A model generated the notes under the pieces. That model was not told the origin of the DNA. It saw nothing but the letters and a program-made list of their open reading frames with translations, and searched no databases. A stretch of 57,811 nt of DNA, counting the filler, from Sphacelaria rigidula (taxonomy: Eukaryota), in the NCBI GenBank assembly GCA_964200075.2. It is 3 parts of 3 records of this genome, joined end to end, with 100 filler letters (N's around TTAATTAATTAA, not from the genome) between each part and the next. Parts side by side here need not be neighbours in the genome. Positions count along the whole stretch, not along the records: positions 19,315 to 38,519 come from CAXNAA020000716.1; 2 more parts are not named here. One strand, 5' to 3'. The translations under genes were made by a program, and so were the position numbers. Shown here piece by piece: positions 15,384 to 56,121 of the stretch. The number at the start of each line of letters is the position of its first letter. Within the stretch, counting starts at the first letter, position 1.

Positions 15384-16637
15384 CTGCAAATTTCATCCAG
15401 TAGATGGACAATAATAATTTAGAGAGTCACATCAGCAAGCTTGCACATGATACGCCCGTACATGAACGACCATGGCAGCACCTTCGGAGGAGCAGTGAGT
15501 CATGAACACATTAGCTCCATCTCTCGATGTTGTGATCACGGGTTGCCAAGAGCATACCACACATAAATGTTCATCAAGCAGCCCGGAGAGGAGGGTAAGA
15601 ATCTCGACATATACACAGGCGCAGGCACCTAAACCACGATAGATACGTTGAAGACTCATCAAGGAAGATCTGCTGGAATTCAGAAGTCGCCACGTACCAA
15701 GAAACAGACTAACGAACGTTGAGGAGCAGACTGTAGTGAAACGAGTCGACACACAAATGTAGGAAGATACAATGGTCCCGCAGCTGGGGGCTTCAAAGCC
15801 TTGCTGAGGGACAAAGTGATCCGCCCGGACCCTTAACCAAAAGGGCCCCGCGTTGCTGTCGCACCGGCATGAAACTCCCCAGACGTTTGTGTAAAATCAA
15901 GTCATGGTGAGGGATTAATAGTGCTCTCTCTGGACGTGAGTCCTACCATCAGCCTCTCGGGAAACCATTTCGTCTGACGTTTCGAATATGGTTCACCTCG
16001 ATGAGTCGCGCGTACTGGCCGTAAAAAAATGCATAAACTCTCTGTTGCCGTCAGAATTCCAGCCCAGGTTCCTGCTCGAAACGCGGGAGCAACTCCAAAA
16101 ATCGGCACAATTACCCGCTACTGCAAGGGCTCAGCTGCTCCGCGGATCGATCCTCACCTCTGAACGGGCAAGGGTGAGCTTGTCCAATATAATCCATTGA
16201 TCTTCGCCTTTAGCCTCCACGAGCACATCCTGCGACCGGTATTACAGATTCGAACGATCACGTCATCCCCAGCTTCACCAGATGATCACGTCATTTCCCG
16301 CATAACATACGACGCGGCGAAAACAGACGCGACCGACATCCCCGACAATCGACTGAACCAACAGTACATAATGCGGTCAAGAGTGAGCCGTTGATGTCCC
16401 CGAGTAGGACATCGACATGTAGCTGTTGGCACACGCTCGTGTTACACACGCGAAGATGAATGGTGTCCCAACGGTACTTTCTGATCTCGGATTTTACGCA
16501 AGGTCGACACTGCAGGGGCTACACAATAACAGCTGCACTTGAGAACATGGGAGAGAACAAGATGCTCCAATGGCCAACTTGTTCACGCGAGTATTCTTAC
16601 GGCAACAGCAGTGATCACGGGCTATTTTTCGGCGGAT

Positions 16638-17228
16638 ATCGATCAGATTTAACCGAACTCCCTTTGGCTTGAAGGGACGGCTCTTTCGGGTTCGATCATG
16701 GTCGATCATATGGGGAAAGAAGCTTTTTTCGTCATTTCGATATCCGCCGTGTGTTGCAGACAAATTCGGAATGTTTTCTCATCCACAACTGTTGAAACTC
16801 ATCAATGGGCGAATCAGACATGTGTTACGACTACACACCCGGCCAGCACCAAGTCATGTCGACGTAAGCTGCGCGGTAGTCGATCAATCAGAATCAACCG
16901 GACACCCTCTGGCTTGTCGGGGCCGGCTCTTTCGAATTAGAACATGGTCGGTCATATGGGGAAAGAAGTGTTTCTCATCACATCGATCGATCACGGGCGC
17001 AGCGAATTAAGGCATGTCAAAAGGAGAGTTCAAAGATGAAGGGGGAAAGAGAAATGTGTGAAGAGAAACTAGTGAATAAAGGATTCGTGTAAGAGAAATG
17101 ACACGAGATACATGCGTGTTCGATCAGAGTCAACCGGATACCCTCTGGCTTGTCGGGGCCGGCTCTTTCGGATGAGAACATGGTCGGTCATATGGGGAAA
17201 GAAGTCTTTCTCGTCATCTCGAACACTC
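16638..17228. repeat. Three ~105-bp direct repeats at ~240-bp period with unrelated spacers
   Basis: Core ...ggctctttcg...catggtcg(g/a)tcatatggggaaagaag...ttc.tc.tca at ~16640, ~16885 and ~17121. Confidence 0.9.
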
Positions 17229-19622: not shown

Positions 19623-20956
19623 GTGAACACAGACACCGCGTTCTTCGATGGAATGTGTGTAGCCTGATACAAGTGCCTTTGCTGACTTTCCCTCTTTGAA
19701 TTATTCCGGACAAAAAATCCACGGCCAATATATCTATCATCTATATCTATATCTATATATAGATGTATCTCGAGATCTACTGTACACCTGTCGGAAGGTT
19801 AACGGTCAACATGTTGCGGCCGGCGCAACGTGAAAAACACGAAAAAAAATGAATTCATTGCGCAGAGAACTCCGTCCGCTTCAATCCGGATGAGCGGGTG
19901 TGTGCAAAGGTACCGCTGACGAACACCCCAACGCCTCGGTCGTTGGCCTTCACCGAGCGAACTTGTCACTTTATATTGTGCCGATTGACCGTTTTTTTTC
20001 CTTCTAATATTACTCGCTCCTTTCCTTTTCCCCACCCTGGTTTTTTTCCTGTCCCTCTTTTCTTCTCTTCGTCTTCCCTCTTCCTATTTCTCCACATTTT
20101 TTTTCCCGTTCTTGAGCTTTTCTTGATTGTTTCCGCGACCATAACACAGCCCAGACATGGACATGGAATAAATAAGCTATCCATCCTTTATCTTTAACCT
20201 ACCATAACACAGCCCGGATACAGACATGATACAAAGCCTTACCCGTTTTTCGTACCGTGGCGCACAGGACGCATCGGTTCCTCGGCGCAGTAAGAGTTTC
20301 AAAATTGATAATTTCCCTGCGTGTCATGAATGACGTACGGCAAAACTCACACATCGCTATTTTGTTCACCGCACTGTCCGAATCATTCATGCGTACCTGT
20401 GACCCATGGATAAAAAATATGCTGATTTTGTTACAGTGTCGCTGAAGAGAGTGAGTGCTCTGTCGGGTAGAGGTCGTGTTCATTGCTGGGACGGTGCAAT
20501 ACATGAAGGACATTGGACGGTTGTTCCAAGGTCTTGCCCTGCCGGTCATTACGTGCGGAATAATAATAGTGTACTCGTCGGCCATATTCCTGTGGTGTGC
20601 GGTGGGCATCTAGCTTGCGGCATTTTCGTCGTTCGGTTCATCTCGACGGGATCTTTTTCAACGACATGGGTGCTTATGCTCGCCACCAGCGCTGCTTTAC
20701 TGGAGAATTTCAACATTACAAAAAGACTAGCAGGCAGGAGGTGTGTTGCCCTCGCAATCTACCAAAGCTGCTGAGGATGAGGTAAGTACGCTGAAGTAGC
20801 CGGCGGTTTCAGGGTCTTTTTGAGTACCCAATACTGAAAAATCCGGGGTACGCAGAGCATCGACTGCAGTTTGTACGCAATACGTGAAGTATGAGTGGTT
20901 GATTGATTGATCGATTGATTGATTGTCGTACTTTAACTGACCCCCCAGGGGTCCAG

Positions 20957-21076
20957 AAGGAACAGCACCAGGGCTTCCCACGTGGTCCCCAACCGTAGGA
21001 CTAGTCCTGGCCCGACGCCGCTTAACTGCACAGAGCGGACGGGATGTGGTGTTTTCGACGTGGTATGGCCGTTCCT
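20957..21076 (-). rRNA. Full-length 5S rRNA sequence, probably a retroposed copy or SINE head
   Basis: AGGAACGGCCATACCACGTCG...CATCCCGTCCGCTCTGTGCAGTTAAGCGGCGTCGGGCCAGG...GGGGACCACGTGGGAAGCCCTGGTGCTGTTCCTT, 120 nt. The 5'/3' stem AGGAAC/GTTCCT and A- and C-box-like elements are present. There is no T4+ terminator. Confidence 0.9.
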
Positions 21077-21139
21077 GCGAGAAGTATGGACTAAAGAAAA
21101 TATTTTCGGTGTTGATGTTCTGTAGGGTATGCCCGGGCG

Positions 21140-21507
21140 TGGGGGATTTTTGTTCAGCATTTCTTTCCTTCTCTCGTCTTTTGTTCTGTTTTGTTTTAGA
21201 TCGGCTTTGTCTTTCTGAGCTTTGCGTTTGTTGACTTTTTTTTTTCACGTCTTAGTCTACTATGTCGTTCTGTTCGACTTTTTCTGTTCCTTCTTGATCT
21301 TCGCCGAGTATGTCAGTTTTGTTTTTCTTGGGTACATCTATCACGTGACCACGGCTGGATCATGACTGGGGGGGGCGTACTCATTTGTTGCTTGCCTTAG
21401 TCATTTGACCATTGACCACGCATCCCTTTCGAGACGGAGCACCGTTCCTACTCCTAATAGAAAATCATGACTGGGGGGTCACTTGAAGTACGACAATCAA
21501 TCAATCA
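21140..21507 (+). mobile_element. 3' tail of retroposon family B ((CAAT)n-tailed), interrupted by a family A LINE fragment
   Basis: Pyrimidine-rich body then gggtac.tctatca...ccacggctgga...ggggggtca.tt.aagt.cgacaatcaatcaatc. Other copies lie at 25090-25321(+), 31322-31520(-) and 55990-56085(+). Confidence 0.8.
21374..21463 (-). mobile_element. 90-bp 3' fragment of LINE family A with a 15-bp TSD
   Basis: TSD ATCATGACTGGGGGG at 21359-21373 and 21464-21478. Encodes the family's C-terminal ...SRNGAPSRKGCVVNGQMTKASNK*. Confidence 0.9.
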
Positions 21508-22039
21508 TACTAGACCGGCATGAATCAGCAGGGTACCCAGCCCTGTTCCGGACACCACTCCGGTATGCTTCGGACAGGGCATTTGCCGAAAAAACACCTC
21601 CATTACGATGATGTAGATACCCTGTTAATAATTTTAGCCGGTATAACCTACTCGGAAGTATTTGGTAAACCAGAGCACCCACGGGGATTTTGTACCCTTC
21701 CCCACCCTGTGCACCCTGTGCAAAGCTAAAGGTTACGTACGTACCAGCAGGGGTCCGGTTAAAGTGCGAGCTTTTGTTGTCGGCTTTTTTTCGTGCCTCA
21801 AGATGTAACTATTGGTGACTGCCGTAGATGGCGGTGTATATTAACGGTGTGTAGCGCATCACCCCCATGAATTGAGACCTGAAGGTGATGAGTTTTCGGC
21901 GATTTTGGACACAATGCATGCACAGCACAGTTGGGGGTACGTCGTATAGCACCCCCTGAACACCAGCCCCCGGTGATGACGTGTAGGGAAACCCATCTCC
22001 CGGGGATCGTATGCATCGCTGTCTATAATACGCAGGCGC

Positions 22040-25000
22040 CGATGTTTTGCTGGTTTGCGTCCCTCTTCCTAGTATGGCGATCGTTTCTCGCTACTATGTA
22101 ACGAACCCGCAAGGGCTCATGTCACATTCGTTCAGTTTCCCCATCTTCTCCAACACCTTCCGTTGCTCCTTGTATGGTTCACGTCCTCCCACTGCGAGAG
22201 TCCTCCTCTCTGTTGCTTCGTCACGAGGGCAATTCTGTACATCTACTTCCCGCTCCGCTCGACGACAGGTGTACCTCCTCCTTCTTTCTGACAGATCCAG
22301 ATCCTTCACCCCAAGTCGCAGTTACAACGCTTTTGTGTAGTCCGTCGGGCCGTGCCGACATGTTTTCATGTCTACCCCTTCTCTAAATCTCCGGTGAATC
22401 TTCCAGTGTTGTGTCTCGTCCACTTTATCTCTTAGCATTGATTCCCCCTTATTTCTACTCTTCGGTTTACTTTTGTGTTGTACTCCCCGCATTCGCCCAT
22501 ACACATTACAGTTACCTCTTCTTGGTTTCCTCCTATATCCTTCCGTACTTTCTCGGCTATACTATCCCGCCTCTTTCCAGCGTGCCCATTCGTTACTTAT
22601 TTCGATGTAGCCTTGCAAACTATGCCTGGTGATGTCTTTTGCAGCATTTTCCTCTCATTTATTCGCCATTTCAATTTTCTTAGGTCGCTATTTGTTTCAA
22701 GCAGGTACATTCCCAAGTCTGCTCTTGATACTGCACTTCTTATGTGCCATAACTAAAGTCCTTTATCGGGGGCAGATCGTATACATCGCCAACGGAGTTG
22801 CCCACGATGGTATAGTTAGGTTTTTTGAAAAGCTGTTGTTGTGCCGATGCTAGGGAAAAAGAAAATAAGCCGAAGTTACTGTAATTAGTGGGTCAAACAT
22901 GGCCACATTTCGACCAAATTTCGCCAATCTGTGCATTGTCGACCGAACTTGGACGAATTTGGCTTGTTTTTGAAATAATTAAAGGCTGCAATGTGAACGA
23001 ATGGTTTCGGACTAGGCGTAGCTATCGTATGCCAGCGATGAACCGGAGAAAAAGAGCCAGTTATAGTTTTTCTCGCGATTTTTGCCGTTTTTCGGGTTGC
23101 CAGGGTTCTTCTCTGTGTTATGGACAAGGGGCGAAATACGGCCATTTTTGCGCCGACGGATCGTTTATTGGCCATTCACGCACGCCGGCTGCTGCGTAAA
23201 CAGGAAGAAAAAAACGCGATTCAACTAAAAAACCCCTAAAGATTGAAAAAATATATATCGCCTACGGCATTGGACACGCTTAAGGGTCTGTGTGATCATA
23301 ACGGACTATATTTATGGAATAGAGGAAGTATCCCTCATCATTTTTGAGCATCAAAGTATTTTTTTTAGCTGTTGTCATTTGTACTGTTTCCAGCTGATTC
23401 ACAAACTCCGCGTTCCCTTCCCATTCTTCTGCAGATTCTAGCTTTGGTAAGATCACATTGATCGGAATACATATTTTAACCCTGGTGTCCATGCGTGAGT
23501 CTCTCAAGATCACGTCCATCTTGCCTATGGGCGCCTTACCCCTTCCGGTCACTTTCATCGATGTGTACAGCATCCCACGAACAGTATTTTATGTCTAAGA
23601 TCCGCCCAGGTATTTATACCTGTAAAATAGTAACATTTTTTCGATGTTCCCCCATCTGGCATCACAGCACCTCTCGCGCACTGTCGTATTTCTAACCATT
23701 CCCCATGTCTTTCCACTGATTCCAGTTTCTCACTTCTTTTCCCGCAGACCATTTCTCCGTACCGTGGCATGGGCCTTGTGTGCATCTAGATAGACACAGT
23801 AGTTGGGCTGGCGTATTTCCTACTCGAACAATCTTACGCAATGTATACACCTGGTGTACGCTGCTACGGTTTGGTCTGAAACCTGCTTGTCCCTCGTTGA
23901 TTTTTCTTGCTTTTCCAGCATCGTTCCCACTCCGTCATTTCAAATCTTACATAATGTTTCCCCCACAATGCTTTGTAGCGTTATCGCTCTACGATTCCCT
24001 GGGTCAGCCTTGCCTCCTTTTTGGAAAGGTTTGGTGCTGTCCTCCCTCCCTACCTCCTAGGTGTGTTCTCGTTCGCCCAGATCCAGTTCTACATGGCTAT
24101 AATTATAAATTGTATGGAAGAAACGGAATGAGCGCCAAAATGTTGGAGGTGTCTCTATTGGGAGTAGGAAGTGTGCTCCGTCTCAAAGGGGATGCGTGGT
24201 CAATGGTCAAGCGACTAAGGCAAGCAACAAATGAGTACGCCCAGCAAACGTCACCCAGCCCACCGACCCGACTCCCAGACCTGGTCTCGATCAACCAGCC
24301 TATGAACNNNNNNNNNNCCCCCCCCAAGGGGGGGCGTGGTAAAAGGCCAAGCCACAAAGGCAACAAAAAAAAGAGGTCCCCCCCCCCCCCCCCCCCCGGG
24401 ACATACGTGATACTTTTGGTCAGCACTCCGGCATCGCGTCAACTTTTGCCGAAATGTCTGAACCATTCGTGCCATCAAAATCTCGTTTTTTTTAAATATG
24501 CTTTTTCACACTTCCGTTTTTTTCGTCTCCATCATTGTTTCACCTGTAGCATACTCTCCCCACCCTACCGTAGTCTTACTCCATGTACATCTTGCGTGGT
24601 CCTCTCTCCTCACTCTTATATTGCCTCTTTTGTTTTCTCGTCCGGCCATTTCACTGCTCTGTTGCATTTGATCAGTTTCTCCCCCCACGATCTTACTTGC
24701 TGTGGTATTGAGCAGTTGCTCCATCCTTCCGAAATATTCGCTCCTGCCCAATCCCTTCCTATCCCTGGATTAGCTCTACCTACGCTTTCCGGCAACTCAA
24801 ACATTTCACTTTTCGTTTCTGGTTATCTCTTTTCAAAGCTCGTGCTGTTTTTCCGTCACTTCTAGTTGATCTATACTGCATTTTACTCTCGTGTGTTGGC
24901 TGTGCCTGTTCATACTCGGCAACGATCCGTAGTTCCCACGTCCAGCGCGCGTCAATGTACTTTTCGTTTCCTTACTTGTTCACTTGTCCCACCACTATAT

Positions 25001-25130
25001 AGTCAAGAATTGAGCCTACTGACTCTTGCATGCATTATCTGGTCCACTCCGGAATCTGGCTTTTTTGTTATAGTGTTCAAGAATTTTTGTTTTAGGTCAG
25101 CCATTTCTTCCTGTGCTTTGCTTGTGTTGA
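22040..25130 (-). mobile_element. Degenerate non-LTR retrotransposon (family A) with AP-endonuclease, RT and C-terminal zinc-knuckle remnants, interrupted by later insertions
   Basis: PEWTR...SILDYIVV (~24990-25055). RT remnants DPGNRRAITLQSIVG, EGQAGFRPNRSSVHQVYTLRKI and LDAHKAHATVRRNGL (~23740-24010). C-terminal remnant ~22090-22400. Many stops and frameshifts. Confidence 0.85.
22735..23295. mobile_element. Diverged MITE related to 27130-27465 and 28078-28688
   Basis: 22740-22860 is an inverted homolog of 27345-27465. 23120-23285 is homologous to 28485-28650. The right boundary is approximate. Confidence 0.6.
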
Positions 25131-28077
25131 CTTTTTTATTACCTCTTCTTATTGTTACGACTTAGTCTGCTATGTCGTTCTATTCGTCTCCCCTTTTTTT
25201 CTGTTCCTTCCTTTTCTCAGAGCGTGTTTCAGTTTCGTGTTTCTTGGGTACGTCTATCATTAGACCACGGCTGGACCCCTGGGGAGCTAGTTAAAGTGAG
25301 ACAATCAATCAATCAATCAATAGCTTCATCTCCTCAGGGCCGAAGGTCATGAAGAGCATGGCGCATGTGCTGCGCCGTGTTGACAGGGGGTTCTGATAGG
25401 TCCGCCTCCTACACTGTCTTGAGCAAAGCTTTCCGAACGCTCGAGGCGCTTACCCCACATGACTGTCACGAGGCAGTTTAGCCTTACCTCTAGGGAATCG
25501 GCACACGAATCCGCTTGCGGGGTATATGTTGAGTCAGGTTCCGTCCTCCTTCCAACGAAACTAAATCTGAAAGATACCTCTTTTCAGTGATATATCAGAG
25601 ACTGATGCCACACATGTATGCAGACCCAGCGCAAGCAGGGACAAGGTAGGAACGGTCCGGCAGGACCAGATTACCGAGGACCCTGTAATGCCGACGTAAC
25701 TAGACAACTCGGGGTGATGCAAGGAAGACCCTAATATTAGGACGGTCCAACATCCCCCGAGGAACTGGTCGCCCCTGGCGACCACTTCTCGTCTGATCTA
25801 ACTTCTTGTCTACATATACATTAGGAAATCATCGCCAACCTCGCAGTTCCTTCGGTATCCGCGTGGCAGTCTCCCCCGTAGGTCTCTGACTACTCTAGCG
25901 ATACGCCTTTCTCACACATACATATATATATACACATATATATTTACGAGGTCGCTGTGCGGGAGGTTGGTACGGGCCTCCCGGGGGTGACGCAAGTCGA
26001 AAATACATGGTTGAGAGAAGCTACTGTTGTCTCTCAATGTACAGCAGTGTTCGTGGCTGTGCAAAACATCGTACGTGTTATCGGATGTCGTTTGAAAATA
26101 TGGGATTCCGGACGGAGGCCGACGGCGGAGCCGCTGGCGTAGGACGTGTGCGGTATATCCGAGACGCCAGAGTGCGAAGTAGCTCTCGTGCCACGAAGAC
26201 ATGACAGCGGGACACACTTCCGAAAAAAATGGAATGCGTGGAACATTCTTGGCATGTTCCTTGTACATCACTGTGGCTTCCACATCACCAGGCTTTTTTT
26301 TTAAAACAGGGCGATTGTTTTTTGCGGCAAAACACTCCTGTGCAGCGTGCTGCTGTGGCTTGTTCAACTCGCCAACGGCTCATTGCACGGTCTGGTGTTT
26401 GCTGGTGACTAAGGCCGAGGCAATGTTCAATTGTTTTCAACTGCTTTCCTCTCATGTTCTCGTGACATTGGCGGCATAACCGGTGTGTTCGTGCTCCCAA
26501 TTGAACGAGAACGCGACAAAGAGAAAACCGGGGGAAAAGTACCCCGCCAGAAGTAATCCTGCTGCGTGAAGATTTTCAACAGGATTTTGTGGTTCGGGTT
26601 CCTCTTCAAGTTTTTCATGATCGTGAAAAGGTTTTTATGGTTCGGGATCGACACCCTGCGAAAGAGAGCCAGATTGAGCCACTTTCGGTGGCCAGAACAC
26701 GCGCCACAGGTATCAGATGACGCCCAAACCTGAACAGTAATGTACCGCTGAGCCTTCTTAGTGCGCTGCAAAAGAAAGAGTGGGAAGAAATGCCTTGCCA
26801 GAGAACACTTGTCAAAAGTGGTGAAAAGTGTGAAATGATACATGTACATATGTATACTTCCTCTGTTCCATAAGTGAAGGTCCTTGTGATTACACAGGCC
26901 ATTCATGGTGTCGGACGCCGTAGGCGGTATTTTGTTTTCAATTCTTCGGTGTTTTTTGAGTCGGAACCCGTATGTATATATATATTGGCATCCACCACCC
27001 TGCATGCATGAACGGCCGACACAAAAGCAGTCGGCCCAAGGAAGGCCGTATTTCACCCGTGGAAAAGGGACGAAAAAGGGGCGAAAACACAACTTTTTTT
27101 TTGTCAATTGTCCTCGCCGTCACTAGGGCTTGATGCTAGATTGTCCCAGGCCTCTGTAAAGACCCCCGGATTATATTTCACCATCATTTCGAACGTTCCT
27201 GCCTTCTGCCGCGCCGACACCCAGGTATGCTCCGTGCCAAAGTCATTATCGCCCATCGACATGAAAAAAACTTGCAAAAACCCGCAAAATATCTCACTTT
27301 TTGACCCAATAATTCTCAGTAAGTCCGAGTCGGATTTTTTTGTTTTTTGTGAGCATCACGGTATCAATAGCTTTCCAACAAACGTAAGTTTGGTATTGTA
27401 GGCAACTCCATTAACGAGATATGATCTGCCCCCCATAAGGACCTTTACTTATGCGACAGAGGAATTATAATCGTCATTTCGTTGCTTTCAAGGAAGTTAG
27501 ACATATCTTCGCTTCCCCCGTATTTCCCAATATTATCATTCATTTAGCTTGCTTTTCGGATCCTTGCATTAAAATTTCTCACTAATATGAACTCTTCTCG
27601 CCCTGGTGAACGACGGGAGAGGGGCAGCAGCTGTCGTCCAAGAAGGAAAAATTGAGCACAATAGTGCAGCACACAGTGCATTCGATCGAGCAACATACTC
27701 GATTTTTTCAATAGCATCCGAGTCCGGGTACCAAAAACAGTGATCGGGCGCAGGGCGTTTGCTCAGATAGCAGACAAGGCAGCGTTGCAAAAAATATGTG
27801 GGAGCTCTGGAGCGCTGACAGGATACCTTTGGTAAACGTTTAGCTCTATGTAGAGCACTGAGGCGGCAGAATGGCAAAATTGCTGTGGAAATGCTGTAGA
27901 TTCCCCGACTAATGCTGTAAGGAGGGGAAAGAAATCATTTGCAATATAGCTATACTCCCTGCGTTTCGAGTCCCTAGTCCACGGGGAAAGACTCGCACAA
28001 TCTGGACAATGACAATAGGTTACATTTGCATGGAGCGTAGTGCGTACAGTATCGAAGGTTGCGTCTAATGCAGTATA

Positions 28078-31253: not shown

Positions 31254-31692
31254 GTATGGTGAAGATCCATCCCCATAGTGCAGTCCCTTAGCGTGTGCGG
31301 TGCCGCCGCACATAATCGGTTAATTTGATTGGTTGATTTGTTTGTCGCACCGTAACCGACCCCCGAGGGATCCAGCAGTGGTCACATGATGGACGCACCC
31401 GAGACCAAATGAGACACTCGCTGAAGAAAAATAAGAAAAACGAGAAGGTAAAACAGAACAACAGAGTGCACGGAGAAAAGAAAAAAAAACGAAAGGACAA
31501 TAGAATAATAAGAAAAAAAAATTGGTGCGCTGAAAATTGCTCGTCACACGTTCGAAGCAACCGTAGCTTCTGTAGGAGTAGTCGTGCTGTAGTACATACA
31601 TGGGCATAGCGTAAATGATGGTGTATGCAACGCCTAGGAAAAGAATGTTTTTGAACCCGAAAGAACTATCACCTGCGAGTGTTTTCTCGGGG

Positions 31693-32560
31693 GGCTTGCC
31701 CATTTGTTGCTTACCTTGGTCGTTTGACCATTGACTAAGCATTCGGTTCCAGACGGAGCACCGTTCCTACTTCTAATAGAGACACCTCCAACATTGAGGT
31801 GCTCATTTCGTTTCTTTGATACATTACACAAAAGCCTTTTACATATCTTACCCCCATCCTGTTTCGCCGTCTGTGGTCACCATCTATCTCCTAGTATAAC
31901 CATCGTTTTCTCCCTATTGTCTAAGCATCAAACGATCTCATGCCACCTTCGTTTACGTCCCGCATTTCCCGCTCTAGCACGTCCCGTTCTTCCTTGTATA
32001 GTTCACATTCTGCCACTAGATGACTTCTGCTCTCTATTGCTTTGCTACAGCGGCAATTTTGTGCATCTATTTTCTCCTTCACTCGACTACTGGTACATCT
32101 CTTTCTTCTTCCTGGCATGTCCAGGTCCCCCACCCGAAATCGCAATTTCACATTTTTCGCCGCGTCTGTTGGGCCATGCAGATATGTTTTCATCCTGATC
32201 CCCTCTCTCAACCCCCCGTGGTGTTTCGGGGGGTGAGGTGGGGCGTGCTCATTGCTTGGTTGCCTCCAGTCACTTGGCCAGAGGCCACGCATCCCTTTTC
32301 ATACGGAGCATCAATCGTACTCCTAACAGAGACACTTCCCGACATATTGCCGCTCATTACATTGTCCCCATGATTTACATTTAACCCTGTTACCCGTCCT
32401 ATCCTGTCCCCGTTTCGCCGTCTGTGGCCACCGTCTGTCTCCTAGCGTGATGATAGTTTTCTCGCTATAGTACCATGCAGTGTACCGAGCGATTTTATGC
32501 TAAGTTCGTTTGAATTTTTCCCATCTCCTCTTCGAACACGCCCCGTTCCTCGTTGTATAC
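31693..32560 (-). mobile_element. Two 5'-truncated LINE family A copies (31693-32195 and ~32240-32560)
   Basis: KTYLHGPTDAAKNVKLRFRVGDLD...CRCSKAIESRSHLVAECELYKEER (C-x-C...H...C zinc knuckle) plus the shared 3' end. Confidence 0.88.
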
Positions 32561-32640: not shown

Positions 32641-35600
32641 CAGGCTGGTTCACGCTTATCGCCCAAAATTGTGTCATCAGAAAATGCATTTCGCAATACC
32701 TACCCAAAAGTCGCATACATGCTATCATACTGACCGCCATGGACAGCTGAAGAGCGTGACATGGCCGGATTTGTGTGTAAGGCTGTAGCGATGGCGCTAA
32801 GGGCGAAAAGGTATATCGACCAATCAGCGCCCATCAAATTGTTCCGAGATTGAAATTACGAATTCCAAGCCCAAATTTCCAAGGTTGTGTTCTGTAAGAT
32901 ACGGGTACGTTCTGTAGGGTATGATATTCCTTACAGAACTATAGAACTGTCGGGTACCGGTATGAAAGTCTTACAGAAAACACAGAACTTGGTACCGGCA
33001 ATCGGGTAACTCTTTCATGACTTTCCCGCCCCTCGGGTTAGGGTAAAGGTTTTGTACAGAACTCACAGAACTATCAGGTAAGGGTTTAGGAGGCTTACAG
33101 AACTCACAGAAACTGTCGGGTACGGTATGGAGGTTGCACGGAACACCGTACCCGCGACCGGGTATCTTATCAAGAGCATACCCGTGCCCCCCGGTAACGA
33201 TACGAGAGGCTTACAGAACTCACAGAACTATCGGGTACGGGTATGAAGGTTTTACCGAGTTTACAGAACTGTCGGTTACCGGTATGGAAGTCTTGCAAAG
33301 TTTACAGAACTGTCGGGTACGGTAAATACCCGGCAAAATACTCCGGGTATTCAGAAAACCGTACCCTGCAGAACACGACCTTGGTATTATCATCACCCCT
33401 GTGGTGAAACTTCCGTCATCACAACAGTGGCGAAATACAGATGGTGACAGTTCACGAAAACTCTGAACGGCTTTCACGGGGTTGACGAAGAAAGACTACA
33501 CGAACAATCGCAGTAGTACATGGATTGTCAACATCTATCGGTTTCACGTGCACTCCCAGAGAGTACATGAAGTGGCACTCACGGCTGCCCGTTATCTGGA
33601 AGCCCTTCGGCACGCGACAAAATCGCCGACGGCCTTGACGACTTTCGGTGGCAGCTCATATACTCTGTGCTGTGCATGTCGATAACGGCCTGGGGTTCGA
33701 TGACCACGACACAACCACCATCAACGTCGATGACATGTGTCTTGCTACTTGATCCTCTGGTGGCGCAGATTAACCCCCCCCGCTTGAGCCACCACTCGCG
33801 AGTCTGGGGGTGATTGATCCTGACGGTCTGCAGGGTTGATCATGAGTCGTGTTCCCACTCAGCGGTACCTCGTATCCCGTCAGATCCCAGACTGAAGAAC
33901 TTTTCAACATTGAAGTAATTATTGCTTGTATGCAGTGTTGAATGAAGGAGTTGGGTGGGCTGATCGATGGGAGGTACATGTTCAGGTCATGAGTTTATGT
34001 TTGTATTGAACCTATATCCGTGCCTCCTCAAGGTATATAACTGCGCTCATACCTGCAATCGGGTATATCTATAGCGGTATACCCTAACCCCGGGTAGGGG
34101 TATCGGGGGCTTACAGAGGTCACGGAACTGTCGGGTACCGGTACTGGATGAAAGTCTTACAGAAATTACAGAACTTGTCGGGTACGGTATAGGAGGCTTA
34201 CAGAAAACCGGTACCGGCAAGCGGGTATTTCTTGAAGAGCATACCCACGCTCCGGGTACGGGTAAACATTCTGTACAGAACTCAAGGAACTGTCGGGTAA
34301 GGGTATAGGAGGCTCACAGAACTCACAGAAACTGTCGAGTAGGGTATGGAGGTTGCACAGAAAACCGTACCCGCAACCAGGTATCTTATCAAAAGCGTAC
34401 CCGTACTCCCCTGTAATGGTACGGGAGTCTTACAGATATTACAGAACTATCGGGTAAGGGTATGAAAGTCTTACAGAGATTATAGAACTATCGGGTAAGG
34501 GTATGAAAGTCTTACAGAAGTCACAAAACTGTCGGGTTCGTTAAATACCCGGCACAATACCCCAGGTATACAGAAAACGGTACCCTACAGAACACAACGT
34601 TGCAATTTTCACCTAATCTACACATGCTTTAAGTTGTAGTAACCGTCATCGGCTCGGGAATTTGACGAAAAAAAAACATTTGAAAGCGGTTACTACGAGG
34701 GTCGAATAGTACCCGATACCGTAATGTTTCGGTGATGTCGGGTGTTGGCGTCGTCAAATTTCCACTAATGACACGCACGAAAGACCCAGGGAGACTCGTG
34801 ACGGTGTCCCCTATCTCTGTTGTAGAAAAGCTCAGATCGCCCTCAAACTTGGCTGTTCCGTAGATATTGATGTTCCAAGTGAATAAAATTGTATTTTGAT
34901 GACATTTCGAAGTTTCTCCGTTCTCTACCCGCTTCCGGGGGTCCCGGTATGAAGACCTCCGGAAGGCGGTACGGAATGCCCCAAAAGAAAGATAATAGAA
35001 TGATGCGTTCCGGGATAATCCAAGGAACACATGTACAACGTTTGGTCGAGAAACTCGAAAACCTCACACGGTTTTTGTTGCCTGGACGTGAAATTCACCC
35101 AAAAATACGTTTCCATTCTAAAACCAAGTAGTTAGGAGTTGCACATTCCAAGCTCACGTCCTTCTCAAACGCGCAAAAACTTCATGCTGTTATTAGGTGT
35201 CAGGCCCCGAAACTTTGCAAAAATATGCTACGTGTCATTACGCAACTTCCGATGGACGAGGTTTGTTTACTTCTTGAGTTTTTTCCCGTTTTTCGAGGTC
35301 CGACGGGATCCAAGTCGTTTTTCGAATCAGTCTCCCTTCTGGGACCCCGGAAAACAGGCACTACGATATTTTCTCATTTTTTCGCAAACCGATTTAACGC
35401 CGCATAACTCAAGGAAGAGCTCCGCAAACTTCCGTGGCCAAGCTCGGCCAACTGATGCTTGAATTTTCATGTTCACGGCAAGAAGGCCAAAACGCCGTTT
35501 TGGTACTAAAATCAAGTGGTTCGCGGTTTATCGCGGCACTGCAAAGTTCATCGCACAAGAACAAAAAACCACACGCCGTTTTAAGGAGTTAGACCCTGAA

Positions 35601-35887
35601 ATTTTGCACAACTGTGCTATGGGTCATTACGCAACTTTGCATGGACGAGGTTTCTCATTTCCGTTTTTTGACCGTTTTACGGGGTCCGATTGGATCGACG
35701 TTTCCCTGAAAGAACTGGAACCCCCCAAAAATGGTGAAAAAAATCAAGAAGTAGAAGAAAAAAATCGACCTTCGAAAGTTGTGCAAAGGCCCATAGAATA
35801 TCTGTGCAAACTTTCAGGTCTAACTCCTTAAAACGCATGAGGTTTTGGCGATGAGTGTTTCTTGGGTGATGAGCGTGAACCAGTCTG
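32641..35887. mobile_element. ~1.5-kb non-autonomous TIR element (Tc1/mariner-like), copy 1, carrying a nested hAT-like insertion
   Basis: TA|CAGGCTGGTTCACGCTTATCGCCC ... GGGTGATGAGCGTGAACCAGTCTG. Collinear with the uninterrupted copy at 53665-55189. Confidence 0.88.
32880..34602. mobile_element. Composite hAT-like element with minisatellite arms and a ~700-bp unique core
   Basis: TIR CAAGGTTGTGTTCTGTA / TACAGAACACAACGTTG. 8-bp TSD caaatttc/caattttc. Arms consist of ~40-bp 'cagaactgtcgggta.gggtatgaaagtcttacagaa' units. An extra internal right TIR lies at 33370-33384. Confidence 0.85.
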
Positions 35888-36846: not shown

Positions 36847-37555
36847 GTACGCATGTCAATGCCAACGCTTGTAAGTCAGATTTTTACCCGACAAATACCT
36901 GTGTAGTGAGCCATCCATTTTTTTTTGTCCGCTGTCAGGAGAGTGCACTGCCAGGGTGTCATTCTAGACGATGACCTTCGCGCCACTTTTGTACAAGAAA
37001 TAGGATCTTTAACTTGAAAAAACTGAAAAGCATTGGCCGAGGTATTTTACTCCCTGCCCCAAAATGGGCAAATTACCAACAACAGCGTCGGTTAGAGCGA
37101 CCCTGAATCCTTTTTTGCAAATTCACTCATGAGGTTTCGCGGTTACTTTGCAGCAGGCGAGGATCGTGACGATAAAACGCGCACTCATTTTGCGCAGCCC
37201 TATTCATTACGTACGCATGTCAATGCCAACGCTTGAAAATCAGTTTTACCCGATAAATACCTGTGTAGTGAGCCATCCATTTTTTGTTGTTCGCTATCGG
37301 GAGAGTGTAGTGCCAGGGTGTCACTCTAGACGATGACCTTTGCGCCATTTTGGTACAAGAAATAGGATCTTCAACTTGAAAAAAATGAAGAGCATTGGCC
37401 GAGGGATTTTACTCCCTGCCCCAAAATGTGCAAATTACCAAAAATAGCGCCGGTTAGAACGGCCCTAAATCCCTTTTTGCAGTTTCACTCATGAGGTTTC
37501 GCGGTTACTTTGCAGCAGGCGAGGATCGTGACGATAAAAGGCGCACTCATTTTGA
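36847..37555. repeat. Tandem duplication of a ~360-bp unit
   Basis: Two highly similar units run from gtacgcatgtcaatgccaacgcttg to gcgcactcattttg. Confidence 0.92.
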
Positions 37556-38519
37556 GCGCTCCTCTTCGTAAACCAACACATGATCACTGCTACGCAACAC
37601 GGTCGGATTCACGCTGCGTTCCCTCTGCCTAGACGGAACCGGACGTCTTCACCGTTGCTTGTTTCGTTAGGCACGAGAGCTTCGAACGATCAATCCAAGA
37701 AGCGTAAATATTGCCGTTGGGTGACCGTCTGAGGCCGCGGATGTAGAACTCTCCGGTATCCTCCACGTATAGTCACTATCCAGTTGCTTTGGGAATCTGG
37801 ATCACCTAGTGAAGTGTTGTTATTGCTTGACTTGTCCAGGTGTAGCTCTTGGTGTACATAGTAGACATCAGTCTTCAGGACGCAATCTAGATGCAATATT
37901 TACGACCACGTGGGGTTGGTTCCTATGGGCTCTAGTTGTTAAAGCATACTGATTTCGCTTCTGCCTTTTGTGTGAGGAGGAAGCGAGTGCGTTACCCCTG
38001 TTGGCAGGCCGCTTTGCTTGTTTTTGTTCCACAACTGCGTCAGGGTAGTTTCTGCATCAATTAACTTTTTCACACGTCGGACAGCTCTTGAGCTACCTAC
38101 AGTAAATATTACTTCATGATAGTGTACCGATCCGGATCATGAGCTAGCTCATTTGATCCCCTTTTCCATATTTGCTCCCTACAGCACTGGGACGTCGAGC
38201 ACGCGGAGTAGTATATCGCCAAGGCAGTGCTCTGGCTTCTCGGACTCGGGCGTCACGTGTTTTGTGTTCGTGGAGCAGAGATGTGAGGGTCCTCTTCGAT
38301 TTTGGGTACTTTAGTTTGGCTCAAGAGCTGTCCGACGTATGAAGTTGTTTTCGGTGCTTTCCATTCATCCCACGAAACGTGTGGGCGTGACCTCATCGTC
38401 GTAGAAATTTCCTGTCGCGCGCAGTTCAGTGTTCCTGCCAGACCGACGAGAGTAACGAGAAAAGCGTTTTCTCGTGCCGGTTGAATATACACCAGCGCAC
38501 AGACCTTTTCACCCTGATC

Positions 38520-39284: not shown

Positions 39285-39810
39285 TGGGGGGCGTACTCAG
39301 TTGTTGCTTGCCTTAGTCGTTCGACCATTGACCACGCATCCCTTTCGAAAAGGAGCACCCTTCCTACTCCCAATATAGACACCTCGAACATTTGAATGCT
39401 CAATACGTTTGTTCCACAAACTACACAAAAATATTTCACGTATCTTATCCCCGTCCTGTTTCGCCGTCTGTGGCCACTATCCACCTGCTGGTATAGCCAT
39501 CGTTTTCTCGCTACTATCTAGTGCATCAAGCGATTTCATGCCACCTTCGTTCACGTCCTGCATTGCCCCCTCTAGCACGTCCCGTTCCTCCTCGTATAGG
39601 TTCTATTCTGCAACTGTATGACTTCTGCTCTCTATTGCTTTTCCACAGGATAATTCTGTGCATCTACTTCCTACTCCTCTCGACTACTGGTATATCTCTT
39701 CTTTTTCTTCTGGCAGGTCCAGTTCCCCCACCCGAACCCCAGTTTCAAATATTTTCCCGCGTCCATTGGGCCATGCAGATATGTTTTCATCCCCATCTCC
39801 GCTCTCACCC
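39285..39810 (-). mobile_element. 5'-truncated LINE family A copy
   Basis: MKTYLHGPMDAGKYLKL...KKRYTSSREE plus the shared 3' end gagtacgccccc. Confidence 0.88.
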
Positions 39811-41329: not shown

Positions 41330-41826
41330 ACGCCGCAATTGTGAACCAAGCTTCGCCAGGGTGGGGGGCGTACTCATTTGTTGCTTGCCTTAGTCGTGTG
41401 GCCATTTACCACGCATCCCTTTCGAGACGGAGCACCGTTCCTACTCCTAATAGAGACACCTCCAACATTCTGGCGCTCATTACTTTCTGCTTCGCTAGGG
41501 GGTGAAACAGTAGAGTTACGGGTTCCTAAGAAGAACGTTGTCGCGCCCTGTTGCCGAAGGATCTCCAAAGCGAGCCGTGATTTCCTCCCTTGTCGTTTGA
41601 GGCAAGGATTTGGCCGTGACCGATGATCAGCAAGAAGAACAACTGAACGAGCTGGTACGGCAGCACTGGCAACGCTCAACCAGGGCTCATGCAGTGGCTC
41701 CACCATTCCGAGCTCTTTCTACCGGAGACCCCGCTGCCTAGATTGCTGCAGATCCATTTTCACAGGCTTGAAAGTTTCGCGTCCGCTCATGTATGTCACT
41801 GGCGGACCCCGTTCCGGAGACTGTTT
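41330..41826. repeat. Interspersed repeat duplicated at ~47335-47682; this copy contains a LINE A fragment at 41364-41488
   Basis: Near-identical ggtgaaacagtagagt...ggcggaccccgttcc blocks. The insertion is flanked by a ~14-bp TSD, gcttcgc(c/t)aggg(t/g)g. Confidence 0.88.
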
Positions 41827-46393: not shown

Positions 46394-49300
46394 TTAAGCG
46401 TCGGGAGTCAGAAATTTCGATTGGTGTTTTGCATTGATGTTACATGACGGTTGAACTATCAAAGCTGCTTGCGGAACACTCTCCAAGTGCGAAGGCTGGC
46501 TACACGGCACCACTTCTCGACTTGTGTTGCTCCCTCTGAGCTTCTGCCTGACTCTATCATGTCCTTTCGCTGCCTTCTTGTGAGACTTCGCACTCCATCT
46601 CACTGAAGGGCATACTGTATGGCAAGCGAATGACCCTCCTCGGTGTTGAACGGTCATGATCAAGTTGAAGATGCAGATCCAAATATCCAAGTGCTACATC
46701 TACCTAGAATGTGACCGGATGAGCTTTTAGAGGGAGTATGGGCAGTTCCGATCAGCGATCAACAGACACTGCTTATTAAATTGTTGTTTATTCTGGCGGC
46801 AGGTTGAACATGTGTCAACATCGGATGAACCGTCACCGATTCATTGGGGTACCGCGCAGAATGCAACATTATATGAGTCTCAACAAGTTGAGCTTCATTT
46901 CTACGATTTTAGGCCCGTGTCCGGTGCATCGCTATCGACGGCTGTTATCAAGGTTGCTTAGGAACCAACTCCAACCACGGAGACTGGTTATATTATACAC
47001 CGCCCTCCTCTTTCCGACCTGCGTTGCTCTAGTTTAGCTTCTGCTTGATCCTAGTATGTACTTTCACGTGACAACTGGGGCTGTTTTGGTGCCTAATCGT
47101 TACGTCTGCCATGAACAACTGCGGGTTCGGATTTCGACACCTCTTCGCCTGTCTGGGTGTCGGCTTTGGTGGGTGCCAGCGTGACCGCTGCTGGCGTAGC
47201 ATTGCTGGAGTTCTTGGCCAGCACGTGGTGTTGATGTCGTCTACAAAGCTGCTTTTCTGCAAACTTGCACTAAATCGTCGGTTGCGCGCGTCAAGGTGCT
47301 TTGCACGCGCGGGTTCAAACCGCTTCGTCGACGCCACTGTGAACCAAGCTTCGCTAGGGGGTGAAACAGTAGAGTCACGGGTTCCGAAGAAGAACGTTGT
47401 CGTGCCCTGTTGCCGAAGGATCTCCAAAGCAACGCGTGATTTTCTCTCTTGTCGTTTGAGGCAAGGATTTGGCCGTGACCTATGGTGGACAAGAACACCT
47501 GAATGAGCCGATATGGTAGTACTGGCAACGCACAACCAGGGTTCATGCAGTGGCTTCAATGTTCCGAGCTCTTTCTACCGGAGACCTCGTTGCATAGGTT
47601 GCTGTAGATTCATTTTCACAGGTTTGAACGTTTCGAGTCCACTCATGTATGTCACTGGCGGACCCCGTTCCTGAGACTGTTTGCCCGTGAATGTAGCCCG
47701 ATTTCAGGCACTGTATACCGGGAAAATAGACCGACCAAGTACACAGTCAGTTAAACGCAGAAGAAATGAAAACTAAATGAGCCCATCAGTATCATCACAA
47801 GAACACGCGTCACTCGAAATGACGACCACGCTCATACAAAACGTAGTGTTGCTCTAGTACATTCTACAACAAACCCGTGAGTGACGTTGCTGTACACGTG
47901 TACACAGGGTTACAACAACAGGAGGATAGTAGCTGCTGCTGGTGTGGTTGTTGTGCCCCACTTGTTGCAGGATGTTGTTGTGCGCGGAACTAGCAACTGG
48001 TAAGGCTGATATCCGGAACGCGCACCGCAGAGACCGCAGCACTCTGCAGACCGCTGCACCAAACCCGAAATGTACTTGAAAACCTTCAACGCTTTGGGGC
48101 TTGTCGGGTCCGCTCTAGCGAATTGGGCAAATCCGCCCCATGGTAATTCGTGGGCAAAAAATCTGTTTCTCCAGTTTACATGGTATATTGGTGCTCAGTA
48201 CGCTCATACAGATATGGTCTCCACACAATAGCTTAACCCCTTTGGGACTGGGCCTCCAGAACGACCAATGAGGCTGGTTAGGAATGACGTGTATGGCGTC
48301 TGCACGAAACAGTGGCTTGTTGTTGCTGAATTCCGCGTATGTCACCGAAGGGTTATGACGAGATCGAAAGTTGAATCCAATCTATTTTCAGGTGCAGGAT
48401 GAACAATAGGTAATGTACACCTGATGTAGGGAACAGTATGGGTCGCCGTAGAGAGCTAACAACAGGATGCGGCGACCGGCGGACCGCCCGCCACTTGTGG
48501 CTTTGGATGATATTTTTACCCCCATCACCTTGCCACTCCACCCTTTGTGGTCGGGGTGGGCCGCGATTTCCCCCTCTGTTGCAAGCGGCAAATTCTCTTC
48601 GAAGGGTGTGAGTGTTGCGGCGCACATACATACAGTGCAGCACAGTGCAGTACGCCTCTCCGACTGCAGCAGCAGCTGCCGTTGCATACTCCCTTGCACA
48701 TTCTGGGCATTTCTCAACAACCGAGATCAACTGCCTATATACCGCTTCTTCATCCCCGCTCACTACATAAATGTTAACCGCACACTGCAAGACATCGGCC
48801 GAGGGATGGGCAGAATTCAGTATGATAGCTCCTTTAGCCTTTCCACGGCCCACCTGGGTTCAGTGCCTCGTGAAAATGATCACATTGTGGCATGTACACT
48901 CCTTCCCGGTTCTTCCCCCTCCACCCTGTGTTAGGGTAGTTACTACGTTTTAGTATAGGATGGCGACCCAAAAAACTCTACGGAAATCCCGGGAGCGCCA
49001 TACTGAAAGCACGTAATACGATAAGCGATGCCCCGAGCATCCGGGATTTGCACACCCGGGAAGATTTATCTGGGCCAGGGACAGGGCCCCCACATGATCT
49101 TTGCAGTGACATCACACCCGGTAACAGCCCCCGCGTTGGTCGTTCGGATCTGGTCGATAAATTTCGCCTCGCCCTGAGTGGGCAGGTCCTTCCCTCACGT
49201 ATTATTTTTCATCAACACATGGTCAGCCCTGTGTCAGTTGGGGGTCGATCCCTCAAGGGTTAATTCTACGCAAAGTTGAGCCGGAACTCAGCGTTTCACG

Positions 49301-53664: not shown

Positions 53665-55189
53665 CAGGCTGGTTCACGCTGATCACCCCCAAATTGTGTC
53701 ATCAGCAAACGCCTTTCGCAATACCTACCCATAGTCGCCTACACGATATCATACTGACCGCCATACACAGCTGAAGAGCGTGACATAGCCGGATTTGTGT
53801 GTAAGACCATAGTGGTGGTGCTAAGGGCGAAAAGGTATGTGGACCAATCAGCACCCGTTAAATTGTTCCGAGATCGAAATTACGAATTCTAAGCATTTTC
53901 ACCCAATCTCCACATGGTTCAAATCGTAGTAACCGTCATCGACTCGAGAATCTAACGAAAAAAACGTATTTAAAAAAAGTTACTATGGGGGTCGAATTAT
54001 ACCCGAAACCATGATGTTTCGGTGATGTCGGGTGTTGGCGTCGTCTACTGTAATTTCCACCAATGATGCGCACGAAAGTCCCGGAGAGCCTCGTGACGGT
54101 GTCCCCTATATCTGTTGTAGAGAAGCTCAGATCGCCCTTATCCTTGGTAGTTCCGTAGATATTGATGCTCCAGATAGAAAAATTGTTTTTTGTCAACATT
54201 TCATGGTTTCTCCGTTTTTTCACCGGCTTCCGGGGGTCCCTATATAAAGACCCCCGGGGGGCGGTACAAAACGCCCTGAAAGAAAAGTAATAAAACGACA
54301 CCTCCCGGGATAGTGTAAGGAACACATGTACAAAGTTTGGTAAAGAAACTCGAAAACCTCTTACTGTGTTTCTTGCCTTATCGTAAAAGTCACCCCAGAA
54401 AACGTTTCGATATTAAAACCAAGTAGTTAGGAGTTGCACGTTTCAAGCTCACGTTCTCAAAAACGCGCAAACCTTGACGCCGTCATTAGGAGTTAGATCC
54501 TGGAACTTTGCAAAAATATGCGATGTATCATTACGCAACTTTCTATGGACGATGCTTTTTCACTTCTTGGGCTTTCCACCGTTTCTCGGGGATGCGACGG
54601 GATCCAAATCGTTTTTCGAAGTAGTCTCCATCCTGGGACCCCGGAATACCAGTACTACGATGTTTTTCTTCATTTTTTCGTGAATGAGCTGTCGCCGCAT
54701 AACCCAAGGAAGGGCCCCACAAATTTCATCGTAGAACTCGATCAACTGATGGTTGAATTTCCATGTTCACGTCAAAAAAGGCGCAAAAACGCCGTTTCGG
54801 TACTAAAATCAAGTAGTTTGCGCTTTCACCGCGGCACGTCAAAGTTCATCGCTCAAAAGCAAAAAACCTCACACCGTTCTAAGGAGATAGACCCTGAAAT
54901 TTTGCACAACTGTGCTATGGATCATTACGCAAATTTGGATGAACAAGGTTTTTTCAGTATTTTTCTTCTCTGCCGTTTGACGGGGATCCGATTGGATCGA
55001 TGTCTTCCGGAAAAAACTGGGATCCCCGAAAAACGGTGAAAAAACCAAGGAAGCCGGAAAACCTCGACCTTCGAAAGTTACGCAATGCCCCATGAAACAT
55101 CTATGCAAAATTTCAGGGTCTAACTCTTCCGAACGGCGTGGGGTTTTGCCGGTGAGTGTTTTTAGGGTGATCAAGCCTGAACCAGCCGG
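53665..55189. mobile_element. ~1.5-kb non-autonomous TIR element, copy 2 (uninterrupted)
   Basis: TA|CAGGCTGGTTCACGCTGATCACCC ... GGGTGATCAAGCCTGAACCAGCCGG. Collinear with 32641-35887. Confidence 0.88.
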
Positions 55190-56121
55190 AATTATGCGAC
55201 GGAACTATTTTTGATACACAAAAGCCCTCTTTGACGCCAAGTATCATCATTAAATGAGAATTCATTTCGTTTATACATACTTTTTCATTTTACCGAACGA
55301 TGAGAATTTTTTCGAACCTCTCCACGAGACGTCTTGGAGAAGGAAAGTGCTGAAAAGAAAATACTACACGAGATTCTCAGAGAAATTTGTAGAGAGTCTT
55401 GAATCGATCTATTGTCCGAACTGCTCAAGACACCTGCTCTCCAATTTTTCGGAGAAAGCAAAGAAAGTCCAAAAATGTCGGGAGATTTCGGGAGGGAAAT
55501 ATGCCAGGTAATGAAACCCCTGAAAGAGGCTGTAGTGTCGCTTTTGGCCTGGTAACCACCAGTGCGGGTCTTCAAGCTCCGACCCTTCCGTATTTCGTTT
55601 TACCTCGTTCGTCTCGCTGCATAAGTACTGCGGACAGATTCAGATCAGGACGCAGGCAAATGTGATCAAGAGTATATCGTTGAGCGTCCACTCTGATAAT
55701 CGCGGTGGGATGCAGGGAGTTGGGGTGCAAAAACGCGTTCTTCTTTCCAATGTGTACGGTGACGCGTGCGTATCCATCGCACGACTAGCAGTGGCGCCAC
55801 CGATCTGTATTATTTTATTTTATTTTATTTTCTCACACTGTGAACCCTTCCCCTTCCTCGGGATCAGCCCGTGGTCTCAAGGGATCAGCCCATCTCTCCC
55901 CCGGTACGTGCCATAATTTCGTCTCGCAGATTGGGTCAGCACTTCCGCACCGCATCCACTCGCGTCACACAAACCCAGTCGACTAATTTGTTTACTCGGG
56001 TTCTCCCGTTTTTCTTGGGTACGTCTATCATGAGACCCCGGGGGGGTCAGTTAGAGTGCGACAATAAAAAAAATAAAAAATCAACCACGCTTTCCACGGT
56101 GGAAATTATGTAAAACGGAGA

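Follow-up and report, generated by a model that had tools for sequence, protein, structure and literature searches.

In a stretch of 57,811 nucleotides (nt) from Sphacelaria rigidula (assembly GCA_964200075.2; filler letters included), here called the window, a complete copy of 5S ribosomal RNA (rRNA) is joined to the 3′ tail of a retroposon. Judged from its sequence, the arrangement supports the insertion, as one unit enclosed by one target-site duplication, of a copied full-length 5S transcript together with the 3′ end of a retroposon. The initial annotation had left two origins side by side, a 5S-headed short interspersed nuclear element (SINE) family or a template-switch chimera. What the two have in common, one unit within one duplication, is borne out, and SINE3 is a candidate designation only. 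The reading tentatively preferred here is a chimeric retrocopy whose junction was born at this locus and which would be solitary or at most low-copy.

The 5S part was located with Rfam cmscan at the gathering threshold, which is 38 bits for 5S_rRNA, over the whole window. 5S_rRNA is the sole family above threshold. Its single match (RF00001) lies on the minus strand at 20957-21076, scores 91.5 bits (E = 1.9e-18) and spans model positions 1-120 of 120, uncut; comparison with the Rfam model had been put forward as a check by the initial annotation and returns this one full-length copy. No second 5S appears in the window in a laxer Rfam scan (E up to 1), nor does self-comparison of the window reveal another 5S-like stretch or fragment.

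Read in the sense orientation of the 5S (minus strand, falling coordinates), the copy extends from position 1 to ...CCUU, the end expected of a mature RNA polymerase III (pol III) transcript, and lies in sense, 5′ of the part derived from a long interspersed nuclear element (LINE). The final bases ...GCTGTTCCTT continue straight as CTGGACC..., so that the last 5S base abuts the tail without a spacer. Directly after the coding region there is no T-run terminator, only ...CCTT and then CTGGACC. The unit contains no run of at least four T, and the first such run is a T5 116 nt beyond the 5S end. The earlier description of a complete 5S lacking an oligo-T terminator is thus accurate, as is that of its direct passage into a retroposon tail (32 nt, 20956-20925) followed by (AATC)n repeats (20924-20894). 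A pol III transcript starting from the 5S head would read through the tail and could end at the T5 run at 20841-20837.

The tail identifies the second part of the unit. A 26-nt core of it, with at most three mismatches, is found at two sites in the window versus none in 100 shuffled sequences. As had been noticed from the start, the tail occurs four more times in the window, at the copies of a repeat family termed family A (table). Upstream of CTGGACC, these four tails carry family A sequence (...TCTTGGGTACGTCTATCATG.GACCACGG) where the chimera carries 5S. None of the four is preceded by 5S, which leaves one junction among five tails. The sequence ATCAACCA that follows the tail is also present at about 56066-56085 and 31322-31342. 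The LINE part of the chimera is a 5′-truncated 3′ end bearing the family's own tail, and this 32-nt tail is near consensus, with one difference from it; in contigs from public sequencing runs, no differing letter is listed for 20930-20956. One family A copy, at 21189-21507, stands head-to-head with the 5S unit 112 bases away and is split by a second repeat, element B, at 21369-21461.

A GACCCC/GGGGUC hairpin in the tail is part of the minimum-energy fold in two of the five tails folded. Measured against shuffles, none of the five folds clearly better (z from -1.35 to +0.90), and the 60-nt tail stretch of the unit gives z = 0.19; the hairpin is offered as a suggestion only.

The flanks tie the two parts together. 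The repeat CATACTTC(T/A)CG, 11 nt long with one mismatch, encloses the whole 5S and tail unit. In random pairs of 25-nt flanks taken from the window 180 nt apart, an 11-mer with at most one mismatch is shared by 112 of 19,764 pairs (0.57%), and an exact 8-mer by 1,971 of 197,905 pairs (1.0%). The possible degenerate duplication described in the initial annotation therefore holds as an 11-mer that few control pairs match. Because a single duplication surrounds both 5S and tail, the unit would have been inserted whole by reverse transcription. No duplications were found at the other four tail copies (10-mers, one mismatch allowed, within 700 nt), and any target signature consequently rests on one insertion.

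A stretch of TTTT sits 9-12 nt before the first duplicated base. RTE-related retroposons are reported to have a T-stretch near P-10 as their insertion signature (PMC6007223). A T4 run in the interval P-14 to P-7 is present at 3.6% of random window positions. The first duplicated base here is C, versus T or A in the reported signature (PMC6007223), in this one insertion. The A/T-only run upstream of the duplication, followed by CTTT, would be either an RTE-type endonuclease target or a TATA-like element of a 5S gene.

The second of these possibilities belongs to a different account of the locus, in which a genuine dispersed 5S gene had its terminator hit by a severely 5′-truncated (AATC)n-tailed retroposon and the flanking 11-mer is a coincidence. 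An A/T-only 10-mer at -30 to -21 and a C at -1 speak for such a gene; we take these to be the places where plant 5S genes have their TATA-like and -1 C elements. An A/T run of this kind within -35 to -18 is present at 1,230 of 114,966 random window positions (1.07%), T-runs are plausible endonuclease targets, and 12 of the 15 longest 5S pieces listed from other loci (see below) still match for one or two bases ahead of position 1. Against this stands the repeat enclosing both 5S and tail, expected by chance at the 0.57% given above. Likewise, the bases before the tail (...GTTCCTT) are not repeated beyond it and no remnant of a terminator T-run is left there, the upstream T-stretch is equally explained as an RTE-type target signature, and the 5S copy carries five changes from the dominant variant, including the loss of the loop E AGUA (detailed below). 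Insertion of a tail at the terminator of a normal 5S gene, which the initial annotation had named as the refuting scenario, is accordingly disfavoured and is considered unlikely.

The 5S head was compared with the organism's own 5S through Logan contigs of four runs, examined over 20600-21700. Seven public runs contain all or part of the stretch, and one of the studies is labelled as an algae metagenome. Summed contig depth does not equal copy number and is read here for orders of magnitude only. In run X1, depth over unique flank is about 76, while it reaches 630,000-740,000 over the 5S bins, about 300,000 over family A (21229-21302) and about 22 million over element B (21369-21461). At four positions, nearly all of the 5S depth in X1 carries a letter other than that of the window: 576,076 of 582,301 at 20991 (A>C), 243,259 of 244,970 at 20999 (G>T), 617,238 of 637,785 at 21024 (A>G) and 640,526 of 650,329 at 21028 (G>T). 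Runs X3 and X4 give similar shares. In addition, the base at 21005 is absent from the dominant 5S, as read from the loose-end consensus at 21006.

In 5S numbering, the window copy thus has C49 (dominant A), T53 (C), an extra A72, C78 (A) and T86 (G). These four substitutions and one insertion (5 of 120 positions) make it about 96% identical to the dominant 5S. At position 78, C replaces an A of the loop E AGUA of the dominant variant, a motif we take to be universally conserved. All five differences fall at positions 49-86, where, by analogy with the box positions of Xenopus, we assume the internal control elements to lie. The head includes the internal pol III promoter region (box A, IE and box C). 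Relative to the dominant variant, the 5S part is by its sequence a pseudogene; it is taken as no working 5S gene because of the five changes, the loss of the loop E AGUA among them. Run X6, guessed to be an RNA run, reaches a depth of 0-5 across the 5S body against about 2,000 in the tail bin and is unusable for a pol III transcript; among the public runs containing the stretch, none is listed as an RNA run.

The preferred reading of a chimeric retrocopy can be put as a sequence of steps. The reverse transcriptase of a LINE that mobilizes the (AATC)n-tailed family A would nick the target downstream of the T-stretch. With a LINE or family A RNA primed at its microsatellite end, the last 32 nt of that RNA would be copied first. 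A jump onto the 3′ end of mature 5S rRNA would follow, and the 5S would be copied through to its 5′ terminus. The same product would result had the 5S RNA and the LINE or family A RNA been ligated before reverse transcription. Integration of the bipartite cDNA as a single unit would create the 11-nt target-site duplication, and the copy would then have decayed by about 4%. A 5S beginning at position 1, its ...CCUU end, the spacerless join and the single duplication together argue for an RNA-level fusion that was reverse-transcribed and integrated in one event. The abundance of family A, with four other copies in 57.8 kb and a depth of about 300,000 versus 76, implies that machinery and template RNA are plentiful. 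The five changes in 120 positions, the one mismatch in the duplication and the one difference in the tail fit the ordinary decay of a single old insertion. That all five changes sit in the promoter region, instead of sparing it, likewise speaks for a solitary copy.

The same anatomy is that which would be expected of a newborn minimal SINE3: a 5S head with its internal pol III promoter region, no terminator, and a LINE tail. By comparison with known elements, the architecture would fit a minimal SINE3 and a template-switch chimera of the U6/L1 type equally. It is possible, if with less confidence than is given to the retrocopy, that the unit is one copy of an amplified 5S-headed SINE family of the SINE3-like, simple head-plus-tail kind. 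In such a family, pol III would start on a master copy at its internal 5S promoter and read on across the tail and (AATC)n as far as a downstream T-run. The tail and microsatellite of that RNA would be recognized by the partner LINE's reverse transcriptase, which would insert the product by target-primed reverse transcription. All features needed at the sequence level are present, namely a complete head, no T4 within the unit, a shared near-consensus tail and a duplication. Furthermore, SINE3 elements with RTE-derived tails are known, and a birth by such a template switch is the origin suggested for them (PMC5786205; PMC3272025).

Several further points weigh against a solitary retrocopy and for a family. 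A random window of 58 kb is far likelier to include a copy from a multi-copy family than the product of a single event. The 32-nt LINE part begins at the foot of the hairpin and resembles a selected minimal recognition module of hairpin plus repeat. Primate 5S/L1 chimeras are mostly truncated and antisense, whereas this unit is full length and in sense. Depth without the dominant letter at 20991, 20999, 21024 and 21028 amounts to 5-270 times the unique-flank depth, an excess that errors or rare variants among the contigs of so deep a 5S repeat (summed depth 250,000-740,000) could also produce; other copies may share the states of the window copy at these diagnostic sites. Similarly, contigs that keep the extra base at 21005 sum to about 15-90 times unique-flank depth, which could arise from rare variants and errors of the very deep 5S array.

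A second copy of the junction has not been seen, which counts against a family, as does the presence of one junction among five window tails. Among the 15 longest pieces listed over the 5S (four from X1, five from X3 and six from X4), none enters the tail. All 15 begin between 20957 and 20970, come from contigs of roughly single-copy depth and differ from the window by 10-16 letters. Nine extend 47-330 letters beyond the 5S 3′ end into sequence that does not fit the window, and the other six stop at the contig end or within one letter of it. Diverged 5S copies with other flanks are therefore scattered in the genome, and those seen are without this junction. The tables cannot count copies as close to the dominant 5S as the window copy; no listed piece covers 20887-21046, even for the window's own locus, and further junction copies are neither shown nor excluded by them. 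Contig building may drop a low-depth path between very deep repeats. In 12 of the 15 pieces, the match also takes in the C, or the GC, immediately before Rfam position 1 (21077-21078). Either the repeated unit or the 5S RNA as such may begin one or two bases ahead of the model.

The five differences at positions 49-86, presumably the control-element region, are also unlike a conserved promoter head. Nor was an autonomous LINE that codes for reverse transcriptase and ends in this tail found in the window, and the eight longest open reading frames (ORFs) tested matched no Pfam family. The only LINE-like ORF, at 31924-32298 on the minus strand and with a weak zf-RVT match (E = 0.13), was considered as part of the partner LINE and rejected; it belongs to another element, which ends in a C-run rather than in (AATC)n. 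A literature search gave no 5S-headed SINE outside animals and Aspergillus, although supplementary tables of the cited papers may contain more 5S chimeras or SINE3 families.

Pattern searches outside the genome were uninformative on copy number. The junction pattern and a 28-nt pattern from the 5′ half of the 5S had no matches in metagenome_contigs, viral_contigs and genome_contigs, and the tail pattern had none in viral_contigs, collections in which the organism is probably not included. An open frame across the unit yielded no candidates among proteins of 33-107 residues, in a search that was powerless, as the unchanged 5S part also matched nothing.

It might also be that the assembly joined a 5S repeat to a retroposon tail by mistake. 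Both parts are highly repeated, and N gaps are present elsewhere in the window. However, independent contigs of X1 cover 21047-21264, comprising 5S positions 1-30 and the upstream flank, with no differences. On the other side, contigs from three runs and two studies cover 20600-20886 and extend 29-39 letters more, which would bring them into the microsatellite. About 160 bases are all that separates the two anchors, and the duplication frames the unit. With both ends anchored by contigs, a misassembly is very improbable, and more than one sample would seem to carry the insertion.

Among published cases, the closest in architecture are SINE3 families with RTE-derived tails. These include HaSE3 in Helicoverpa, CoeSINE5 in the coelacanth and SINE-1_Pmo in the python, and a template switch from LINE or SINE RNA to 5S rRNA has been proposed for the origin of SINE3 (PMC3272025; PMC5786205). 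Like the unit, these elements have a 5S head in sense, a LINE 3′ end with short tandem repeats, and target-site duplications. They are animal families of many copies, usually with a body, and their heads have diverged from 5S outside the promoter boxes. The unit differs from them in being one copy, with a whole 5S about 96% identical to the dominant one, no body, a 32-nt tail and an algal host. The initial view that SINE3 is known mainly from animals is roughly right, although 5S-related SINEs have also been reported in Aspergillus.

In documented status, the unit would rank as a chimeric retrocopy of the U6/L1 kind. In mammals, chimeras of U6 or 5S with L1 are flanked by duplications and show no further propagation (bioRxiv 10.1101/2025.02.02.635956). 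For U6/L1, ligation of the RNAs by RtcB before reverse transcription has been proposed (PMC6789731). U6/L1 copies share with the unit a small RNA placed 5′ of a truncated LINE 3′ end, one event and one duplication, and their U6 is complete and in sense. Every junction among them goes back to an event of its own and does not propagate. The enzyme in the U6/L1 and 5S/L1 cases is L1 and the tail is poly(A), whereas the unit has a specific 32-nt tail plus (AATC)n, typical of LINEs that recognize their own 3′ end. Outside animals, chimeric retrogenes made by a LINE are reported in Magnaporthe (PMC2104539). There, too, LINE template jumps fuse cellular RNAs to retroelement ends, while the RNAs and the LINE differ from those considered here (PMC2104539).

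For an algal comparison, a report on Ectocarpus describes RTEX-N1_Ec32, an abundant non-autonomous element whose 3′ end is common with RTE-X LINEs, and states that no pol III-type SINE could be identified (PMC12477816). Family A resembles RTEX-N1_Ec32 in being short and very abundant, with a LINE-like 3′ end and no recognizable pol III head. Heads resembling tRNA were sought in family A and element B, and ARAGORN gave no genes and Rfam, at E up to 1, nothing.

The accepted view of SINE birth is that the reverse transcriptase of a LINE leaves its own RNA for a pol III transcript. By the time the products are noticed, they have usually gone through long amplification and decay, and heads and tails are hard to trace. 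Here, all parts are still legible: the whole 5S, the junction at the mature 3′ end, the 32-nt tail, the microsatellite, the duplication and the target T-stretch. Insertion of a whole unit is exactly how a new 5S-headed SINE would begin. Conceivably, though this is put forward with reserve, the unit is a member or the still-recognizable founder of an algal 5S-headed SINE family served by an RTE-like LINE through the module of 32 nt plus (AATC)n. If so, SINE3 would have been born independently outside animals and fungi, and the lineage would have its first described pol III-type SINE. Were the junction multi-copy, 5S-headed SINEs would extend to an algal lineage, a very small tail would suffice for mobilization by its LINE, and the copies would provide presence/absence markers for algal population work. 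Were it single-copy, it would offer a clean example of the intermediate step, the work of a LINE other than L1 that has a microsatellite tail, which is useful and unsurprising.

Table. Parts of the 5S-headed unit in 5S sense order, followed by the family A copies carrying the same tail
Feature	Position	Strand	Basis or remark
A/T-only run AAAATATTTT, then CTTT	21106-21093	-	just upstream of the 5′ duplication copy
AGTC	between CTTT and the 5′ duplication copy	-	sequence
Target-site duplication, 5′ copy, CATACTTCTCG	21088-21078	-	control flank pairs
Single C	21077	-	between the 5′ duplication copy and 5S position 1
Full-length 5S rRNA copy (head), ending ...GCTGTTCCTT	20957-21076	-	Rfam
32-nt retroposon 3′ tail, CTGGACCCCTGGGGGGTCAGTTAAAGTACGAC	20956-20925	-	common to four other copies, 81-92% identity
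Microsatellite AATC AATC AATC GATC AATC AATC AACC ACT	20924-20894	-	two mutated units, then AACCACT
Target-site duplication, 3′ copy, CATACTTCACG	20893-20883	-	control flank pairs
First T5 run downstream	20841-20837	-	116 nt past the 5S end
Family A copy, tail 21465-21507	21189-21507	+	22/24 to the 32-nt tail at about 21471-21494
Family A copy, tail and (AATC)5	25085-25321	+	27/32 to the tail at 25270-25301
Short family A copy, tail and decayed A-rich microsatellite	56008-56085	+	26/29 to the tail at about 56034-56062
Diverged family A copy with tail	31322-31450	-	26/32 to the tail at about 31343-31374

Family A has a form of its own in the contigs. At about 21229-21238 its depth climbs roughly 20-fold, and the contig pieces listed for it begin at 21238-21254. 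The depth step and the shared starts indicate that the abundant form is short, about 165 nt, and has a fixed 5′ end instead of being a series of random truncations. It corresponds to 21238-21359 plus 21465-21507, with a matching part in 25148-25321. Two possibilities for family A are a non-autonomous element derived from a LINE and a SINE whose head is of unknown kind.

Element B, which interrupts the nearest family A copy, is present in six copies of 92-130 nt in the window (21369-21461, 24111-24242 on the opposite strand, 31689-31815, 32240-32360, 39286-39416 and 41363-41488). It closes a LINE-like unit at the 3′ side, and the last ORF of that unit is the one at 31924-32298 on the minus strand, with the weak zf-RVT match. 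Five of the six copies end in ...ACG plus 6-8 C, an unusual tail. Within the family A copy, element B has (CCCCCC)AGTCATGAT on both flanks. Its contigs show many tandem joints that go back 70-77 and G-rich loose ends, and element B may also exist as a satellite.

The window is repeat-dense in general. A tandem array with nested periodicities occupies 32916-34600, and a 360-nt tandem duplication with 90.6% identity lies at 36847-37567. Two long dispersed, diverged duplications pair 34605-35883 with 53895-55185 (80.6%) and 41489-41826 with 47348-47682 (88.5%). A near-perfect palindrome at 40248-40345 matches microRNA (miRNA) precursor models on both strands with 39.5 bits versus a threshold of 95, and is probably the inverted repeat of a transposon rather than a miRNA. 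Finally, three tandem units on the minus strand (16634-16745, 16879-16991 and 17115-17227) match the model of the C/D-box small nucleolar RNA (snoRNA) SNORD12 with 33, 28.5 and 25.5 bits, all under the gathering score of 43, and may form a snoRNA cluster.

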